Below are positions 15,270 through 23,402 of a stretch of DNA of 64,000 bases, piece by piece (position 1 is the stretch's first letter; each line of letters opens with the position of its first letter). The position numbers and the translations under genes are program-made. Origin of the DNA: Candidatus Doudnabacteria bacterium (GTDB taxonomy: Bacteria > Patescibacteriota > JAQUNI01). Location: assembly GCA_041644975.1 (NCBI GenBank), contig JBAZQX010000004.1, forward strand, positions 9,189 through 73,188, given 5' to 3'. The notes beneath the pieces were generated by a model. It saw only the letters and a list, made by a program, of their open reading frames with translations. It did no database searches and was not told the DNA's origin.

Positions 15270-15520
15270 AAAATTAATTTCAGTAGATAATTATTATTTT
15301 GTAAAATGCAATCTTTTCATATTTTTAAATTATTTTTCAAGCATCACTATTTAACCAGAAACACGAAGCTCCCCGCCAGCGATAGCCTTGCGGCTACCCA
15401 TATCCCTTTCGAGATATGACCGACTAAGGTGCTCTGAACGAGGAGCTTGATGCCTTAGTCGGTTTTATGCCATACCTCATAGCAAAACTATCAGGGTTAG
15501 GCAATTTAATTTTCAAAATA

Positions 15521-15745
15521 CTATGTTATGTGCTTTCTCTCTAACAACCTCTTAATATCATCTTTTCTATAACGCCTTATCTTTTTTTCACCAATCCTGA
15601 TTGCAACCAAAATACCTTTTTTGTCCCACTGGCGCAAGGTGTTAGGATGACATTTTAAAATATCACAAGTCTCTTTGAGGGTAAGAAGTTCTGGCATATC
15701 TTGTCTGTTTTTTACTACTTTTACCATTGATTTTTTACTTAACAT
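15521..15745 (-). CDS. Helix-turn-helix DNA-binding protein, excisionase/MerR-like (Xis-type)
   Basis: LLTLKETCDILKCHPNTLRQWDKKGILVAIRIGEKKIRRY is the HTH_17/Xis pattern. Confidence 0.65.
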   Translation of the reverse strand: MLSKKSMVKVVKNRQDMPELLTLKETCDILKCHPNTLRQWDKKGILVAIRIGEKKIRRYRKDDIKRLLERKHIT

Positions 15746-15815
15746 TTGATACCATTATCATACAGCAGAAAAAAATAATCTGCAAATATTAAAATGAAAA
15801 TTACTATAAATTACT

Positions 15816-17423
15816 ATGACACCAGAAGCAAAAATTTGGCTAATTTTAAAAAATCTAAATGATGCACTTACAATTGCCCCGAGCAAAAATTTGGCACTGT
15901 TGAACGCAAAAGACTTAGAGAAGTTGATGGCTAGAGAAGAGCACGAACAAATTTTGGAAAAGTTAGTTAAGGATTACAAAGTGGTGGATATTCAGAAAAA
16001 ACCAGATTATCAAAAAAGCTTTTTTTACAAATGCAAAATTACTGACAGCGACGAGTTTAATAAAATTTTAGAAGATGCTCATATCAAATATTTTGGTAGT
16101 TTAGGAATGCTGACAGGTGATAATTTTTTATCCGTAGTTGATGTAGCGACAGACATAATGAACGAGCTCCAAATGACCAAGGGGGATGAAACAGTGATAC
16201 CGCTTTTTCCATCCATTGTCAGATTTTCTAATCTTATGCCAGCAGACAGTATTAACTTAAGAGATAGATACTGTGATTTGAGATGGAAAGCAGTAATATA
16301 TTTAAGAGATAATGAATATATTAAAAATTTTAAGCTATTGAATCAAGCTTATGGAAACTTCCACAGATGGGATTTTGAAATCAAAATATCGCTGAATAGA
16401 ATTAAATTTTATAAATTTTACGAACAATTGATAACAACATATAATAGGCGGGTAAAATTTAGAAGTGAAGAGAAAAAAATAAAAAAGGAAAATGAAGCCC
16501 TAGACTATACAGACACAGCTTCAAGAAGGGCGTGGGAGAAAAAATGGGACACATTGCAAGTAATATGGACTATTTATGAAAGCAACAACAAACCAAATCA
16601 GCTACTTGTGCCTATTAAAAGACTAACTATTAAAGATAGAATCATTCTTGAAATTGAAGGTCTATTAAACGGCTTTGAAGATGATGGCTGTTTTGATTGG
16701 TGTAGAGGAACGGAGAATTATGAGATTAAAAACATAAACCACAACCTATTTGCAGAAACTTACAAAAAAACAGGGCTTATTTATGATAAATTCGCCAAGA
16801 TTTACCGAGAAAGGGTTAGCGATAAAAATATTGAAGATAAACAACCAACACAAAAAATTGAAATTGTTGGAGGTAAAATAGAAATTGAAGGATTGCAGGA
16901 TGGATTAAAAGCAATCGCCCAGACCAAAAAAGAAGATAAAAATCAATTTCCTTATAAATTACCAGCAGGAACGAAATGGGAAAATTTTACTATTAAGTTT
17001 GAGGATGATGAAAATGTTTTTATCCAAGTAAAACAATTTAAGTATAGTGCTGACTACAGAAAGATGGGAATGGTCGGACGAGGCAAAAATCCCAATCCAA
17101 GCGAAGCGTGGACATTTCTGAAAGTTTTATCTCAAGTTAATAATGAACTGACAATAAAAGACGCCGAAGCGAGAGATAAATATAAAAAACAAAAAGAATT
17201 ATTAGCAAAAGCACTTCAAAAATACTTCTTACTTGATTATGACCCCTTCTATCCTTATCACTCATCAACAGAAAAAAGCGGCAACTCTTATAAAATTAAA
17301 ATTACCCTAATACCGCCACCAGACAAAAAAGAAAAAGCTGATACTAATAAAGACGATAACGACGATTTAGGAATAAAAGAATACTTCAATAAACAAACTC
17401 CACAAATTTATGAAGACCAGTAG
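15816..17423 (+). CDS. Large hypothetical protein (535 aa ORFan) in the mobile element
   Basis: No recognisable catalytic motifs. Followed by a clear terminator. Confidence 0.5.
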   Translation: MTPEAKIWLILKNLNDALTIAPSKNLALLNAKDLEKLMAREEHEQILEKLVKDYKVVDIQKKPDYQKSFFYKCKITDSDEFNKILEDAHIKYFGSLGMLTGDNFLSVVDVATDIMNELQMTKGDETVIPLFPSIVRFSNLMPADSINLRDRYCDLRWKAVIYLRDNEYIKNFKLLNQAYGNFHRWDFEIKISLNRIKFYKFYEQLITTYNRRVKFRSEEKKIKKENEALDYTDTASRRAWEKKWDTLQVIWTIYESNNKPNQLLVPIKRLTIKDRIILEIEGLLNGFEDDGCFDWCRGTENYEIKNINHNLFAETYKKTGLIYDKFAKIYRERVSDKNIEDKQPTQKIEIVGGKIEIEGLQDGLKAIAQTKKEDKNQFPYKLPAGTKWENFTIKFEDDENVFIQVKQFKYSADYRKMGMVGRGKNPNPSEAWTFLKVLSQVNNELTIKDAEARDKYKKQKELLAKALQKYFLLDYDPFYPYHSSTEKSGNSYKIKITLIPPPDKKEKADTNKDDNDDLGIKEYFNKQTPQIYEDQ

Positions 17424-17460
17424 CGAAGTTAACCTTTAGCTTTTAATAAATCTCTTACAT

Positions 17461-17496
17461 AAAACTCCTCACAAAATGGGGAGTTTTTTGTTTTTC
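17461..17496 (+). terminator. Intrinsic terminator after the 535-aa ORF
   Basis: aactcc…ggagtt stem + TTTTTTGTTTTT. Confidence 0.6.
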
Positions 17497-17578
17497 TGCG
17501 ACAGAGCGTGAAATTCGCCATCTATAAGTAGAAGGTCGCAAAAAATAAAAAAATCACAATTACCCAAAATTAAATTAT

Positions 17579-17839
17579 ATGGTTAAAAAATCACAAAAAA
17601 GTCAGTCAGACGAGATGTTCGCCACTTACGATTTAGGATGTGCCGCCGCTTTGATAACGGCAGATTTTGAGTTGCTCACTTTGGATAAAGCTAATCCACG
17701 CAAAGTCCAGTTCATCTTTCGCCGAGAAGTCGGCATTGAAAAAGTCGTGGATGACTACTGGGCTGACAGATTAGAAGTTAAAGCACGGGCGTTCTTTGAT
17801 AATATCAAAATGTTAAAGAACCGCATTTACTCGGAATAA
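17579..17839 (+). CDS. Small hypothetical protein, possibly phage-associated (weak DUF5659-like pattern)
   Basis: FATYDLGCAAALITADFELLTLDKANPRKVQFIFRRE loosely resembles DUF5659-type small phage proteins as recalled, not verified. Confidence 0.35.
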   Translation: MVKKSQKSQSDEMFATYDLGCAAALITADFELLTLDKANPRKVQFIFRREVGIEKVVDDYWADRLEVKARAFFDNIKMLKNRIYSE

Positions 17840-17842
17840 ATT

Positions 17843-18040
17843 ATGATAACCGATGTGCAGATTGCAAAATTCCAGACACTTTACAAAAATCGCTTTGGCA
17901 AAACAATCAGCCGAGAGGAAGCGTTTGATATGGGAGTAAAACTCATCCGATTAGTTGAGTTGATTTACAAACCGATGAAAGAAAATGAATATCAGGAATT
18001 GCAGAAACGCCGCCAAAGCCAAAAAACTGACGACATTTAA
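17843..18040 (+). CDS. Small hypothetical protein
   Basis: 65 aa, 4 nt after the previous gene (operonic). Confidence 0.35.
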   Translation: MITDVQIAKFQTLYKNRFGKTISREEAFDMGVKLIRLVELIYKPMKENEYQELQKRRQSQKTDDI

Positions 18041-18060
18041 TAAAATTTAACATTAAAATT

Positions 18061-20295
18061 ATGCAAGAATTACAAACCATTACAATTAAAGAGTATCTGG
18101 CACGCAAAGGCGTTGCCTTTCGTGAGAGCGGCAAAGAGCTTATCACCCACTGCCTTTTTAACGGCTGTGATGAGAATAGCAAAACTAACGAAGCTCATCT
18201 TTATTTTGACGCAGAAACAGGGCAATTCAACTGCAAAAAGTGCGGCGAAAAAGGCAACCTCATAACCCTTGCTAAACATCTTGGCGATAGAATAAATGAT
18301 ATTGCCCTTAATCCAATAGCTCCCATTAAAAATTCACAAAAATCCACGAAATTTGACGCAGAGCTGGTTGAAACCTGTCATCAAGCACTTTCAGTCAATA
18401 TCCGCCAGTATTTGAACGCACGGGGCATCACAGACCCCATTATAGACACATACAAGCTTGGTTGGGGCAAATTCTACGGCAAATGGTGGATTACTATTCC
18501 TATTCAGGATATTGATGGAAATTTTGTTTTTCTCAAATTACGGCAAGACCCAGAAGATACAAATAATCCAGATAAATATAAATTTTATCCTGCTGGGAGT
18601 AGCGCAACTATCTATGGATGGAAAATGCTGAAAAATAACAAAGGCACCATTGTAATCTGCGAAGGTGAGTTTGACCAATTAGTGTTGTTACAAAATGCTA
18701 TTCCCGCTATCACTTCCACGGCTGGCGTTGGAACTTTCAAAAAAGAGTGGATTGAATACTTGAAAAAATTGGAAAAAATTTATATTTGCTTTGATAAAGA
18801 TGAAGCTGGTGAGAAAGGAGCAGAGCGGCTCATTAAACTTTTATCTGAACATTTATCTGATACTGCTATTTACAAAATTACGCTCCCAGAACGAATGGTT
18901 GACGGCAAAGATATAACCGATTATTTCCTAAGATACAACGGCAATGTGGATGAATTGATTTACAAATTAGCAAAAGAATATCCAGAGCGAATTGATACCT
19001 CGCAGTTCAAGCCGCTATCCTCGCAGGATTTGGTTGAAATACTTGGATTGACGATAAAGCAGGATGATGAAAATAAAATCGTAACCTTCCTTTGCGAGTT
19101 ATCGGCATATACGGAAAACGCTCAATTCAACATCAGCTTTAACGCACCATCATCTACGGGTAAAAGCTATATCCCCACCGAGATTGCTCGGTTATTCCCA
19201 GAAGAAGATGTAATGGAGCTTGCCTATTGCAGTCCTACGGCATTTTTTCACGATGTCGGCGAATGGAACAAAGATATGAAAGGATATGTCGTGGATTTGT
19301 CTCGCAAAATTTTGATTTTTCTTGACCAACCACATACTTTACTTCTTCAACATCTCCGTCCGTTGCTCTCGCACGATAAAAAGGAGATTTCGGTGAAAAT
19401 TACTGATAAGACGCAGAAGTTTGGATTGAAGACCAAAAATATCCTACTCAAAGGATACCCCGCAGTGATTTTCTGCACGGCAGGATTGTTGATTAACGAG
19501 CAGGAAGCAACACGATTTCTCCTGTTAAGCCCAGAGATTAACCAAGAGAAAATCAGGCAAGGGATTTTGGAGAGCATTAAAAAAGAAGCAGACGCCGAGA
19601 GCTATAAGGGCTGGCTGGATGAAAACCCCGAACGAAAGCTACTTAAAGAGCGGATACGGGCAATAAAACTGGAAGGTATCCGTGAAATAAAAATTGCAAG
19701 TTATCAAAAGGTTGTTGATAGATTTTTGAGCGAAAATAAGGTGCTCAAGCCCCGACACCAGCGAGACATTAAACGCCTTGTCTCAATTATAAAATCCTTT
19801 GCCTTAATCAATCTCTGGTGGCGGGAAAAAAACGGCACAACCATTACCGCCAATGAGGATGACATTGAACAGGCATTTAAGATTTGGGACGCTATCTGCA
19901 TAAGCCAAGAGCTTAGTCTGCCACCGTATATCTACAATCTCTACCAAGAAGTTATCTTGAAGGCGTGGAATGACAAAAATAGCAACAGAAGCGAGGCAAC
20001 GGGACTGCTCGGCTTATCACGGCAGGAACTACTGCAAAAGCACTTTGAGGTCTATGGGCGGATGTTGGACACAAACCAGCTACGCCAGCAGATTTTGCCA
20101 ATGCTGGAGATGGCGGGGCTTATCGTGCAAGAGGCAGACCAAAACGACAAACGAAAAATGTTGATTTCCCCTACCGCACTAACCACTAAATCTCCGAACC
20201 AAAACAATAGTGAGAACGGGGGTGGGGTGAGCACCAACGAGGAAAACAATAGTGAAACGCAGGGTGGGGTAACTCCAAACTTAGGAATTTTCTGA
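18061..20295 (+). CDS. DNA primase (CHC2 zinc finger + TOPRIM) fused to a C-terminal P-loop NTPase-like domain (phage/plasmid primase, P4-alpha-like architecture)
   Basis: CHC2 ribbon HCLFNGCDENSKTNEAHLYFDAETGQFNCKKCGEKG. TOPRIM GTIVICEGEFDQ … CFDKDEAGEKGAERL. Walker-A-like NAPSSTGKSY in the C-terminal half. Confidence 0.75.
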   Translation: MQELQTITIKEYLARKGVAFRESGKELITHCLFNGCDENSKTNEAHLYFDAETGQFNCKKCGEKGNLITLAKHLGDRINDIALNPIAPIKNSQKSTKFDAELVETCHQALSVNIRQYLNARGITDPIIDTYKLGWGKFYGKWWITIPIQDIDGNFVFLKLRQDPEDTNNPDKYKFYPAGSSATIYGWKMLKNNKGTIVICEGEFDQLVLLQNAIPAITSTAGVGTFKKEWIEYLKKLEKIYICFDKDEAGEKGAERLIKLLSEHLSDTAIYKITLPERMVDGKDITDYFLRYNGNVDELIYKLAKEYPERIDTSQFKPLSSQDLVEILGLTIKQDDENKIVTFLCELSAYTENAQFNISFNAPSSTGKSYIPTEIARLFPEEDVMELAYCSPTAFFHDVGEWNKDMKGYVVDLSRKILIFLDQPHTLLLQHLRPLLSHDKKEISVKITDKTQKFGLKTKNILLKGYPAVIFCTAGLLINEQEATRFLLLSPEINQEKIRQGILESIKKEADAESYKGWLDENPERKLLKERIRAIKLEGIREIKIASYQKVVDRFLSENKVLKPRHQRDIKRLVSIIKSFALINLWWREKNGTTITANEDDIEQAFKIWDAICISQELSLPPYIYNLYQEVILKAWNDKNSNRSEATGLLGLSRQELLQKHFEVYGRMLDTNQLRQQILPMLEMAGLIVQEADQNDKRKMLISPTALTTKSPNQNNSENGGGVSTNEENNSETQGGVTPNLGIF

Positions 20296-20336
20296 CACTA
20301 TAAAAAAGGGCGAAAAACATATAACACTTCTAACAT

Positions 20337-20801
20337 ATGACAAAAGTATCACAAAAACAATTAGAGGCAAACCAAAAAAACGCCAAGCTCGGCGGAGTAA
20401 AGACCGATGAGGGCAAGGCGGTAAGTAAGCTAAATGCTTTAAAACACGGACTATTAAGTAAAGAGGTATTACTTAATGAAGAAGACGAAAAATCCCTTAT
20501 TGAACTCGGAAAAAGATTGCGGACAGAGTTAAAACCAGATACGGAACTTGAGCTATTGTTAGTTGATAGGATTGTAGCGAATTTTTGGAGATTGCGAAGA
20601 GCAATGATAATAGAACAACACGATGTTATCTCTGACACTGGAGGGTTAATGTATGATTGTGATAAATTTTTCCGCTATGAGACACTGCTTGAAAGAGGAA
20701 TTTATAAAGCCCTTCACGAATTGCAACGGATACAATCTGCTCGTGCTGGAGAGAAACCGCCCGCCCCATTGGCAGTGGATATTGATGTTTCTACTGATTA
20801 A
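20337..20801 (+). CDS. Hypothetical protein (mobile-element cargo)
   Basis: 154 aa, no known motif. Confidence 0.4.
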   Translation: MTKVSQKQLEANQKNAKLGGVKTDEGKAVSKLNALKHGLLSKEVLLNEEDEKSLIELGKRLRTELKPDTELELLLVDRIVANFWRLRRAMIIEQHDVISDTGGLMYDCDKFFRYETLLERGIYKALHELQRIQSARAGEKPPAPLAVDIDVSTD

Positions 20802-20950
20802 TAAAATGGGTTTGTTTCGCAAAAATGGTGGCTTTTGGTGGCTTTTTTTGTAAGGTTAATTGGAACAACAATTTATTCTTTATTCAAGCGGAAAAATTGA
20901 TTTTAATTTCAAAAAATAAACCTATCAATCTCTAATGATTTCGGCGGATT

Positions 20951-21553
20951 TTGAGAAAAAATATTATGGCAAAGCAAGAAGCAGAATGGAGTAAAAGATT
21001 AAGTATTTTCTGGCTAAAGAAGCACGGCTATCTTGATGGCGGCTGGCAGTATGGGAGTATTAAGTGGACTTATGGGATGAGCGGCAATGAAAGCAGTATC
21101 GGCTTCAATGTTATGATTAACGGGGATGAGGGCGACAATATCAGATTACAATACACATACACGAGCCGAGGAACTGATGAAAAAGAAAGTATGGATTACA
21201 GGGTTGAACTTACTACAACTCCTTGTAACTATGGCGGCAAACGATACTGGTTTATCTGCCCACTAACCAAGGATGGAAAGTATTGTGGACGGCGGGTAGG
21301 GGTGCTTTTCAGTATTGGCAAGTGGTTCGGTTGCCGACACTGTGGAAATATTGCATACCAATCACAGTTTGAGGGCGGTAATATTCGCACAGGTTCAGTT
21401 TTTGAACCAGATGTTGAAAAAGCATACAACGAAGTGAAATTGCAATACTACAACGGCAAACCAACAAGAAAATATAAACGCTACCTACGATTAAGACAAA
21501 AGATGGATAATTCGTGGGCAAAAGCGGCTTTAAAATTTGGCATTAAGTTTTAA
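20951..21553 (+). CDS. Hypothetical protein with C4 zinc-ribbon (CNYGGKRYWFICP…CGRRVGVLFSIGKWFGCRHCGN)
   Basis: Two CxxC pairs. Otherwise unrecognised. Confidence 0.4.
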   Translation: MRKNIMAKQEAEWSKRLSIFWLKKHGYLDGGWQYGSIKWTYGMSGNESSIGFNVMINGDEGDNIRLQYTYTSRGTDEKESMDYRVELTTTPCNYGGKRYWFICPLTKDGKYCGRRVGVLFSIGKWFGCRHCGNIAYQSQFEGGNIRTGSVFEPDVEKAYNEVKLQYYNGKPTRKYKRYLRLRQKMDNSWAKAALKFGIKF

Positions 21554-21582
21554 GTATGGTATTATAGATGTGTTGACCCGCC

Positions 21583-21682
21583 GCAAAAGCAATTCACAAG
21601 GATTTTTATTTGTAATGCTGTCCCTAAAGGGGCGGTCTGCCAGCATTACTACTCCTTGTGAGCAAGTGGTTGGGTCAACCAG
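21583..21682. promoter_or_regulatory. Inverted-repeat structure upstream of the recombinase gene: gttgaccc…gggtcaac flanking gtaatgctg-22nt-cagcattac
   Basis: Perfect 9-bp inverted repeat inside an outer 8-bp inverted repeat. Candidate recombination/operator site. Confidence 0.4.
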
Positions 21683-21704
21683 ACCGTCCTTTTAAGTAAT
21701 AAAT

Positions 21705-23402
21705 ATGACAAAAATTACACAAATTACACAAAAAAACATAAAAAATAAATATTTTCTTTATGCCCGCAAGTCATCAGAAAGCGAAGATAGACAGGTGCAG
21801 TCCATTGATGACCAAGTAAATCGGCTTAAACAACTTGCCAAAGATTTAAGTTTGGATATTAAAAAAATCTATACCGAATCAAAAACAGCCAAGAAGCCAA
21901 ACAACCGCCCCCTATTTGATGAAATGATACAGAGAATTGAAAATGGCGAAGCGGATGGAATTTTATGCTGGCACTTAAACAGATTGACACGCAACCCAAT
22001 TGATAGCGGTAAATTAAGTTGGCTTTTGCAACAAGGAGTAATCAAATCCATTCAAACCATAGAACGACAATATCTACCCGATGACAATGTTCTACTATTT
22101 AATGTTGAGACTGGTCAGGCTAATCAGTATCTTTTGGATTTAAGCCGTGATACTAAACGGGGACTTCTCAAAAAACTGAATACGGGCTGGCAAAATGGCA
22201 TCGCCCCATTGGGTTATCTGAATGACAAAGAAAACAAAACTATTATCAAAGACCCAGAGCGTTTTAATCTCGTCCGCAAAATGTGGGATTTAATGCTCAC
22301 GGGCAATTATACGCCGCCAAAGATTTTAGATATTGCTAATAAGGAGTGGGGTTTTAGAACACGAAAATTCAAAAGGATTGGCGGCTGTCCTCTGTCCAGA
22401 AGCGGGATTTATAAAATTTTTACAAGTTTGTTCTATGCGGGGGTTATTGAAAATAAAGGGGTGCAATATGAGGGGAAACACGAGCCGATAATTACCCTTG
22501 AAGAATACGACCGAGTGCAAATGTTGCTTGGGAGAAAAGGCAAGCCAAGACCCAAAAAGCACAAATTTGCCTTTACTGGATTTATTCGGTGCGGGGAGTG
22601 CGGCTGTCTTTATACTGCTGAAACAAAACAAAAACTAATCAAAAGCACTGGCGAAATCAAAAAATATACTTATTATCATTGCACCAGAAAAAAAAGAGAT
22701 ATTAACTGCACCCAAAGGAAATTTATTAGAGAAAACAAATTAGAACTCCAAATTGAAAAAGAATTAGAAAAATACACTATTCTCCCAGAATTTTTACATT
22801 GGGCTTTAGAGGGTCTGAATAAAAAAAATGACACCGAAATTGAAGACCGAACAAAAATTTATGAAATGCAACATAAAACTTTAACTGAAACTCAAAAAGG
22901 ATTGGACGAGCTTACTAAAATGAGATACCGCCAGTTAATTGATGATGAAACTTTTGTCAAAGAGCGTAATGAATTACAAACCAAAATCACCCAGCTTAAA
23001 GAAAAATTAAGAGAAACCGAAAGCCGAGCCGAGCGATGGCTGGAGCTAACAGAGAAGACTTTTAATTTTGCAACATATGCTAGAAAAGCATTTTTGATAG
23101 GAGGGTTAGAACTAAAGAAAGAAATACTGATGACATTAGGGAAAAATGCGATAATAAAGGACAAAAAGCTCTATATTGAGCCGAATGAATGGCTACAACC
23201 AATCAAAAATGGCTATCCTGCCTTAGAAAAAGAATATCTAAGGTTAGAACCAGCCAAAATGCGCTTAAATAAAACAAAAACAGAGGCTTTAACCTCTGTT
23301 CGTGCACGGTGGCTGGGGAGGCAGGATTCGAACCTGCGAATGGCGGCTTCAAAGGCCGCTGCCTTACCACTTGGCTACTCCCCAAAATGGAATCAGGAAT
23401 AA
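21705..23402 (+). CDS. Large serine recombinase (resolvase/invertase catalytic domain + recombinase domain + zinc ribbon + coiled coil)
   Basis: YARKSS…DDQ catalytic region, GILCWHLNRLTR, CGECGCLYTAE…YYHCTRKK zinc ribbon. The last roughly 30 codons are antisense translation of tRNA-Gln. Confidence 0.85.
   Translation: MTKITQITQKNIKNKYFLYARKSSESEDRQVQSIDDQVNRLKQLAKDLSLDIKKIYTESKTAKKPNNRPLFDEMIQRIENGEADGILCWHLNRLTRNPIDSGKLSWLLQQGVIKSIQTIERQYLPDDNVLLFNVETGQANQYLLDLSRDTKRGLLKKLNTGWQNGIAPLGYLNDKENKTIIKDPERFNLVRKMWDLMLTGNYTPPKILDIANKEWGFRTRKFKRIGGCPLSRSGIYKIFTSLFYAGVIENKGVQYEGKHEPIITLEEYDRVQMLLGRKGKPRPKKHKFAFTGFIRCGECGCLYTAETKQKLIKSTGEIKKYTYYHCTRKKRDINCTQRKFIRENKLELQIEKELEKYTILPEFLHWALEGLNKKNDTEIEDRTKIYEMQHKTLTETQKGLDELTKMRYRQLIDDETFVKERNELQTKITQLKEKLRETESRAERWLELTEKTFNFATYARKAFLIGGLELKKEILMTLGKNAIIKDKKLYIEPNEWLQPIKNGYPALEKEYLRLEPAKMRLNKTKTEALTSVRARWLGRQDSNLRMAASKAAALPLGYSPKWNQE
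23310..23384 (-). tRNA. tRNA-Gln (anticodon UUG), CCA encoded
   Basis: rc = TGGGGAGTAGCCAAGTGGTAAGGCAGCGGCCTTTGAAGCCGCCATTCGCAGGTTCGAATCCTGCCTCCCCAGCCA. 7-bp acceptor with U1-A72, anticodon stem CGGCC/GGCCG, loop CUUUGAA, T-arm GCAGG-TTCGAAT-CCTGC. Confidence 0.85.

Follow-up and report, generated by a model that had tools for sequence, protein, structure and literature searches.

A conserved C-terminal domain and its paired DNA motif point to a possible modular regulator in a tRNA-associated mobile element of Candidatus Doudnabacteria

When a gene of a small mobile element resembles no described family and lies between a xis-like gene and a primase gene, is it cargo, or is it part of the element's own machinery? 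The question is raised by gene X, as we call it here, which encodes a 535-residue protein in an element of ~8 kb (~15357-23334) within a 64,000-nucleotide stretch of contig JBAZQX010000004.1 from a Candidatus Doudnabacteria bacterium (assembly GCA_041644975.1); this whole stretch is referred to below as the window, and coordinates are those of the window unless another locus is named. The original prediction, made from the letters alone, described X as an ORFan in the cargo position between the two genes just mentioned, as the largest gene of the element, and as having its own terminator and no recognisable motif. We tentatively propose that X instead encodes a modular regulator of this tRNA-integrating element, with a C-terminal domain that would bind sites beside its own gene and thereby control the downstream operon, a reading that the comparisons set out below make plausible.

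X is a genuine open reading frame (ORF), and profile searches agree that it contains nothing readily recognised. The protein matches no family in Pfam, PHROGs or PADLOC, and NCBIfam returns a single match, which at 12 bits (cut-off 400) is noise. Among the things looked for were a reverse transcriptase (RT) domain (RVT_1; Pfam and PADLOC), any recognisable enzymatic domain (Pfam), a defence family (PADLOC) and a Rep-family hidden Markov model (HMM; all four collections), and none was matched; nor did homology to a structural phage protein or a housekeeping family emerge. Judged by its sequence, the protein belongs to no described family. It is nevertheless no ORFan. A word-indexed search returns 206 homologues, and an identical protein (WC650_02375, 100%) is recorded in a Candidatus Doudnabacteria metagenome-assembled genome. 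Only ~8 proteins align with X over its full length, at 47-62% identity, the remaining homologues aligning over residues ~346-535 only, at 50-85% identity. A profile of this C-terminal region gathers 2,626 clusters (50% identity) at E ≤ 1e-3 and 1,095 at 1e-10. Nor is X the largest gene of its element, as both the primase (744 residues) and the recombinase ORF (565 residues) exceed it.

The conserved region, ~125-190 residues long, constitutes an unannotated family found in the Candidate Phyla Radiation (CPR) and in Ignavibacteria. It is always terminal, with a median of 2 residues beyond it and with N-termini of 0-785 residues (median 255) ahead of it. The core, F378-P500, is basic (pI 9.4) and near-invariant at FPxKLPAGTxW, W432, YKKQK, YDPFxPY and SYKIK. 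AlphaFold2, given the family alignment as input, returns a confident multi-domain model of X with a mean predicted local distance difference test (pLDDT) score of 85, in which the cassette ahead of residue 341 scores ~85-96, residues 341-377 form a disordered linker, and the C-terminal core scores ~90-97. The C-terminal domain is modeled as three strands, a helix, a short strand, a long helix in which the YKKQK stretch is located, and a small sheet.

What stands ahead of this domain is exchanged. The closest relatives (L005, L006, L012 and others) share with the window the LOOT RNA, the HTH_17 gene, the promoter and the first ~7 codons of the slot gene (MTPExK). Homology to sister elements in blastn is then lost from 15838 to ~16850 (codons ~8-346) and is regained within the linker. 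As homology breaks at codon ~8 and returns at ~346, the N-terminal two-thirds have been swapped in frame, and the variability concerns modules within one gene rather than a separate cargo gene. The linker motif, IVGGKIEIEGLQDGLKAIA, is kept in the X family and occurs as well in L095, whose C-terminus differs. The modules themselves travel separately: modules 1 and 2 recur in the slot protein of L044 (42% identity, E=3e-63), whose C-terminal family is a different one, P0232 and P0233 have module 2 joined to a REase_DpnII-MboI nuclease and P0234 has it joined to GUN4, and module 3 recurs in P0230 and P0231 with other C-termini. Other relatives carry tetratricopeptide (TPR) repeats at the N-terminus.

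If the C-terminal domain is the constant part of these proteins, what constant partner does it have? Downstream of X, the spacer of 100-160 nt that separates it from the DUF5659 gene contains TAGCGAAATTC, a terminator hairpin and GTGAAATTCGCCAT, all kept in the CPR and Ignavibacteria family-A loci examined, family A being the loci or sources whose slot gene carries the X-type C-terminal domain. A hairpin with its T run is present in 26 of the 26 spacers folded, and its stems covary between lineages, so that the terminator originally credited to X is both real and kept in relatives. With ≤2 mismatches allowed, 30 of 33 family-A sources have the right-hand motif, O_R (GTGAAATTCGCCAT), ~85 nt past the X stop codon, and 27 of these show no other match; the window contains no second exact copy of it. 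Together with the left-hand motif O_L, which in the window reads TAG-CGAAGTTAAC, it makes up a pair of inverted copies of an 11-nt near-palindrome, GYGAA-A-TTCRC (GYGAAATTCRC).

The motif tracks the C-terminal domain and not DUF5659 or LOOT. L077 and L040, two loci with the domain, have it. Where the C-terminus of the slot gene is a different one, none of the 25 DUF5659 genes has a match nearby (0/25), and on this ground we rejected an operator belonging to DUF5659. Other C-terminal slot families show, by eye, repeats of their own at the stop codon and/or after the terminator: TCCGAATATC occurs twice in L095, with a degenerate third copy, L095 and L144 combine TCCGAATATC repeats with the palindrome TATCCGA..TCGGATA, and L035 has AGAGTAATCC/GGATTTTACTCT.

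Inverted copies on either side of a terminator might also act at the level of RNA, the arms pairing in the transcript around the terminator while the C-terminal domain, or LOOT, serves as an antiterminator or processing factor. The arms are indeed complementary in 93% of alignment cells, as opposed to 29-50% when slid against one another, RNAfold draws an enclosing helix in many loci, and the left arm overlaps the stop codon, so that translation could modulate the pairing. On the other hand, the arms do not covary (177 of 500 shuffles reach the observed value), which speaks against a long-range helix between the two motifs, and the structures chosen by RNAalifold are confined to the terminator and to the right motif's symmetry with itself. 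Arms that are complementary without covariation, and each near-palindromic alone, fit the pattern of a dimeric protein site better than that of an RNA helix. A variant would make the C-terminal domain the protein partner of LOOT, which adjoins X in 13 of the 28 relatives fetched by the domain. Yet when LOOT loci were sampled independently, the domain occurred in only 1 of the 19 in which the relevant side extended for 5 kb or more, and Ignavibacteria loci have domain and motif without LOOT; as a general LOOT-binding protein it is ruled out. We regard control at the RNA level, this variant included, as very improbable.

That the C-terminal domain recognises the motif is, given this co-occurrence, probable. 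In the mechanism we envisage, the basic domain (~378-500) would bind both GYGAA-A-TTCRC sites, probably as a dimer: the first over the X stop codon and the second ~85 nt further on, past the terminator and just upstream of the DUF5659-primase-recombinase operon (DUF5659-xis-integrase in Ignavibacteria). Occupancy of the sites would then set the expression of the replication and excision operon, with repression the likelier direction than activation. The N-terminal two-thirds, comprising three modules of which at least two are winged-helix-like, would serve as the exchangeable input or partner-binding part that times the switch. A terminator between X and the operon would allow X to be expressed independently, probably while the operon is silenced. 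A conserved domain joined to a swapped N-terminus and accompanied by a cognate site pair makes, in our view, a regulator likelier than cargo.

Several observations weigh against such a regulator. The co-occurrence of domain and site could reflect co-inheritance of one block of DNA, as the motif lies only ~85 nt from the sequence coding for the domain. Two family-A loci, L064 and L141, both from the set of loci collected by their LOOT RNA, have no detectable motif. A search of the 64-kb window finds no third copy at X's own promoter, and the promoter of the DUF5659 operon is not convincingly placed by sequence. The domain is without a link, by homology or by fold, to known DNA-binding domains: taken alone it matches nothing in Pfam even at E ≤ 10, its model returns only noise from the PDB in Foldseek, and the full model returns only noise from BFVD. 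RT and TPR N-termini are, moreover, unusual for a transcription regulator. An OmpR-type winged helix-turn-helix was considered and provisionally rejected. By eye, the order of β strands, helix, short strand, long basic helix and terminal hairpin recalls the Trans_reg_C domain of OmpR, PhoB and CadC, and the C-termini of two slot genes from other families score just under the Pfam threshold for Trans_reg_C (E=0.0004 and 0.003). The X family, however, has no Pfam match, Foldseek finds no OmpR-family structure, and hhalign against an OmpR/PhoB/CadC/ToxR alignment gives a probability of 0.95% over 21 aligned columns, although with an alignment assembled by hand this is a weak test. On present sequence evidence, the domain is not a member of Trans_reg_C. 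Profile searches of PDB sequences yielded nothing usable for the C-terminal or the N-terminal part, and tblastn of the C-terminal domain found no match among deposited phages and plasmids.

A second short motif lies at 17528-17539 (GTAGAAGGTCGC), ~8-10 nt past the right-hand site. It takes the form TAGAAG / AAGGTCGC in CPR and TAGAAGCTTC in Ignavibacteria, with equivalents in L005, L017, L019, L022, L024, L027, L028, L034, L095 and L097, and elements with a slot gene of a different C-terminal family share it. The DUF5659 operon may have its promoter or its start of transcription here.

Is the constant part of X, then, a fixture of these elements? The element backbone recurs in many CPR lineages. 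Of the 28 genome loci retrieved with the C-terminal domain, 25 have DUF5659 after X, and a slot gene stands just upstream of DUF5659 in 55 of 58 DUF5659-bearing loci. A second sample was assembled from the RNA side, as 105 full-length LOOT RNAs fished from metagenomes by a DNA pattern; at these loci, too, the slot ahead of DUF5659 is always occupied by a large gene without a Pfam match, usually of another C-terminal family. The neighbor itself, for which only a weak and unverified resemblance to DUF5659 had been suggested, is a true member of that family (Table 1), on which we found nothing in the literature. Considered as a moron, X does present a terminator and a promoter-like site (9/12 match); the slot, on the other hand, is always filled, and the 3' third and the flanking sites are conserved. 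In Ignavibacteria the X-DUF5659 pair is found between tyrosine integrases and HTH_17 genes. L017-L028 are compact modules of this kind, as in L020 (7856-12417 of that locus), where a tyrosine integrase on the minus strand is followed by HTH_17, X, DUF5659, HTH_17 and a second tyrosine integrase; the L020 module adjoins a HerA/TrwB-like ATPase. This layout makes the X-DUF5659 pair common to elements with unrelated recombinases in two phyla. The C-terminal third, the terminator and the motif pair are thus element backbone, kept across two phyla and two recombinase types. It is at this point that the cargo claim divides: the slot does vary among sister elements, and relatives carry conflict-type modules in it, but X cannot, taken whole, be called free cargo.

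A protein upstream of a primase gene, with sites beside it, could also be a replication initiator. In that case the C-terminal domain would bind the two sites as an origin, the N-terminal modules (the RT in relatives) would recruit or provide priming, and the primase would complete the replicon. Phage P4 alpha offers a parallel, its origin-binding domain lying C-terminal to enzymatic domains. In Foldseek the full X model finds only weak fold matches, all at E>0.01, among them multi-winged-helix proteins of the PDB such as RPC62 (E=0.02-0.03); the best matches of the N-terminal part are to tandem winged-helix proteins, which include the pi initiator (2nra, E=0.25) and models of phage proteins labelled 'replication initiator'. 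X lies just upstream of the primase, the TCCGAATATC repeats after the stop codon in L095 and their like in other slot families are iteron-like direct repeats, and an RT-fused relative occurs in an element that has no primase. Against these stand the strong conserved terminator between X and the primase operon, the presence in the window of only two sites, inverted, rather than an iteron array (at least three direct repeats), and the failure of any Rep-family HMM to match. The Ignavibacteria versions, furthermore, lack a nearby primase or helicase and precede xis and int genes; as X-DUF5659 there comes before HTH_17 and a tyrosine integrase with no primase, the downstream function shared by all these elements would be control of recombination and not replication. 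We consider an initiator unlikely.

The swapped N-termini raise the further possibility of defence or counter-defence cargo, with the variable N-terminus as phage sensor or effector and the conserved C-terminus as a common effector or adaptor. Some relatives are headed by a class 1 UG/Abi RT of the UG19 type (RT_UG19, 7e-48), an RT (RVT_1) being found in P0034, P0043, P0045 and P0120, and the UG19 group is predicted to be defensive (PMC9226505). In P0034, P0045 and P0120 a UG19-like RT is combined with an extra C-terminal domain, in likeness to UG19-large (PMC9226505); the PADLOC UG19 model covers model positions 3-386 of 562, leaving the C-terminal domain outside its coverage. Three relatives have weak AbiJ_NTD3 matches, the nuclease fusion of module 2 is of the same flavor, and X is moron-like in having its own terminator and in varying between sister elements. 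X itself differs from UG19-large in lacking an RT and, as noted above, has neither a PADLOC match nor a recognisable enzymatic domain. Its conserved half is backbone in two phyla, mostly paired with DUF5659 and the cognate motif, and defence leaves the motif pair unexplained. We judge this explanation distinctly unlikely.

A wider version of the regulator proposal would see the slot genes as plug-and-play switches, in which sensor modules (Abi-type RT, AbiJ-NTD3-like, nuclease-associated winged-helix, TPR) are joined in frame via a short conserved linker to various DNA-binding domains, each with its own operator-terminator cassette. This is speculative, and we would not expect it to hold in full. 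If true, different infection or stress signals would prompt different CPR elements to excise and replicate, and these would be the first elements of a satellite-like, signal-triggered type to be described from CPR bacteria, with the LOOT RNA and the pseudoknotted recombinase leader described below as further, RNA-based layers of the same circuit.

Table 1. Features of the element, in window coordinates.
Feature	Position	Strand	Basis or remark
Element left end (putative attL-proximal arm)	15357-15380		blastn blocks to five sister elements start at 15357-15366
LOOT RNA (RF03000)	15381-15503	-	Rfam 88.9 bits vs gathering 46.4; full length, 1-121
HTH_17 gene (Xis/AlpA/MerR-like), divergent from X	15521-15745	-	Pfam E=1.5e-11; PHROG excisionase/regulator
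Slot gene X	15816-17423	+	ATG start, 535 aa
Variable in-frame cassette, residues ~8-345	15838-16849	+	modules 1-95, 96-215, 229-340; no DNA homology to most sister elements
Flexible linker, residues 341-377	16836-16946	+	pLDDT <50-73; motif IVGGKIEIEGLQDGLKAIA
C-terminal domain core, residues 378-500	16947-17315	+	proposed sequence-specific nucleic-acid-binding domain; 50-85% identity across CPR and Ignavibacteria
O_L, left motif (TAG-CGAAGTTAAC), overlaps stop codon	17421-17433	+	conserved as TAGCGAAATTC in relatives
Intrinsic terminator of X	17461-17497	+	11-bp stem 17461-17487, then T run
O_R, right motif (GTGAAATTCGCCAT), near-palindrome	17508-17521	+	30/33 family-A sources
DUF5659 gene (PF18903)	17579-17839	+	37.8 bits vs 23.6, E=1.8e-9, profile 3-75 of 75
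s65, conserved 65-aa gene	17843-18040	+	phmmer matches in many sister loci
Toprim/DnaG-type primase, 744 aa	18061-20295	+	Pfam Toprim_2 1.4e-13; PHROG DNA primase 2e-30
Conserved gene, 154 aa	20337-20801	+	kept in sister elements
Conserved gene, 200 aa	20951-21553	+	kept in sister elements
Structured leader RNA	21572-21694	+	upstream of recombinase ATG 21705; three nested helices and pseudoknot
Large serine recombinase	21705-23402	+	Pfam Resolvase, Recombinase, Zn_ribbon_recom above threshold; PHROG integrase 3.6e-72
tRNA-Gln(UUG)	23310-23384	-	element right end within/at 3' 25 nt (23310-23334)

How, then, is the surrounding element built? Its extent was delimited by DNA comparison with sister loci. 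The left boundary is a predicted one, placed with five sister loci whose left flanks are unrelated; on the right, homology stops at 23333-23334 in nine relatives, within the 3' end of tRNA-Gln, into which the recombinase ORF extends. Sister elements likewise adjoin tRNA-Gln, -Pro, -Ala, -Ser, -Trp and -Asp. Neither tRNA-derived nor terminal direct repeats were found at the element ends, as expected for a serine recombinase. Sister homology reaches 25 nt into the 3' end of tRNA-Gln (region 23278-23334), and a terminator-like hairpin for this tRNA (23301-23278, minus strand) lies inside the coding region of the recombinase, whose ORF spans the whole tRNA. The element may thus supply the terminator of tRNA-Gln and perhaps its 3' end; conservation of the T-arm among tRNAs could alternatively explain the 25 nt of homology. 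Tandem 10-mers cover two start codons: the slot gene has two copies of AAATTACTAT at its beginning (15798-15817), and the recombinase gene two copies of AAATTACACA (21712-21730).

The gene order bears out the placement of X between a xis-like gene and a primase gene, and the 65-residue ORF that had been pointed out downstream is kept in many related loci. A satellite-type set is partly present, in the form of the recombinase, HTH_17 and primase genes, of which the last two occur in only part of the element family. PHROGs assigned no head or packaging function to the element's genes, the sole such match being a weak one of the HTH_17 protein to the small terminase subunit. In the primase, Pfam Toprim assigns only residues ~195-290, and a PHROG primase/helicase profile extends to ~371; the C-terminal ~370 residues match no family, and a helicase could be hidden there. 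The s65, 154-residue and 200-residue proteins matched no family in Pfam, PHROGs, PADLOC or NCBIfam, and the DUF5659 and 200-residue proteins found nothing usable among PDB sequences. An RT-bearing element of Candidatus Moranbacteria (L001-L004), whose slot gene (10001-12373 in L001) begins with a UG19-type RT, is without primase, HTH_17 and LOOT and retains the DUF5659, 65-, 154- and 200-residue genes, the recombinase and the operator motif.

Two structured RNAs belong to this element. LOOT, described in the literature only as a metagenomic RNA of unknown role, is set back ~24 nt from the left end, and its transcription runs out of the element toward the junction. In 12 of the 13 LOOT-bearing relatives among those fetched by the domain it precedes the slot gene and is read from the other strand, and in the sample collected by LOOT itself a serine recombinase stands on the same side in 9 of the 19 loci with at least 5 kb there. 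The LOOT DNA pattern found no match in IMG/VR. That LOOT is a mere chromosomal neighbor of the integration site is unlikely, as LOOT loci lacking the backbone have no adjacent tRNA and sister elements occupy six tRNA species; we therefore take LOOT to be a part of the element and not what it targets. This orphan RNA thereby gains a genomic home, at the tip of serine-recombinase elements.

The second RNA, a leader of ~120 nt whose pseudoknot ends ~12 nt before the recombinase ATG, may represent a new type of cis-regulatory RNA for the genes of large serine recombinases. Several of its helices show compensatory changes, and P1, which is 100% paired, has them in 7 of 8 pairs; 13 pairs show double changes, as opposed to 4.8±1.7 in shuffles, and the minimum free energy z-score is -3.1. 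No Rfam family matches it, and it is apparently undescribed, with support from sequence comparison that is strong for its size.

The mobile elements of CPR bacteria (Patescibacteria) have received little description, and annotation is lacking for most of their genes. Here a supposed ORFan becomes a domain family of more than 1,000 clusters (E ≤ 1e-10) with a named 11-nt site, and hence a testable hypothesis; what is new is an undescribed domain-operator cassette in what we propose to be a modular regulator of the element. In-frame exchange of modules at a fixed slot offers a way to read the signals to which such elements respond, and, should the regulator reading hold, pairs of domain and operator would be candidate orthogonal parts for synthetic regulation.

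The known systems closest in logic to the proposed regulator are the master repressors of mobile elements, such as Stl of Staphylococcus aureus pathogenicity islands (SaPIs), the CI-type immunity repressors, and ImmR and SetR of integrative and conjugative elements, which are the most variable of backbone genes. X, too, is encoded by its element beside a divergent xis-like regulator and varies more from one sister element to the next than any other backbone gene, and, like these repressors, it would combine a DNA-binding part with a variable, signal-determining part to control replication and excision genes. It differs in lacking a detectable helix-turn-helix or other known DNA-binding family, in having its conserved part at the C-terminus rather than the N-terminus, and in having sites that bracket a terminator rather than a divergent promoter; its function, moreover, is inferred. 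With the iteron initiators of the pi/RepA type and with P4 alpha it shares winged-helix-like modules, a putative terminal binding domain, sites beside the gene and a neighboring primase, and it parts from them in the points already weighed: Rep profiles and fold matches, the number and orientation of the sites, the terminator ahead of the primase, and its occurrence where there is no primase. The element as a whole resembles P4-like satellites, phage-inducible chromosomal islands and tycheposons in its size of ~8 kb, its position at a tRNA 3' end, its integrase, xis-like HTH gene and primase, and its variable slot. Unlike them, it has no capsid, packaging or helper-exploitation genes recognisable with PHROGs; it employs a large serine recombinase in place of a tyrosine integrase, and it carries a LOOT RNA and a structured recombinase leader in a CPR host.

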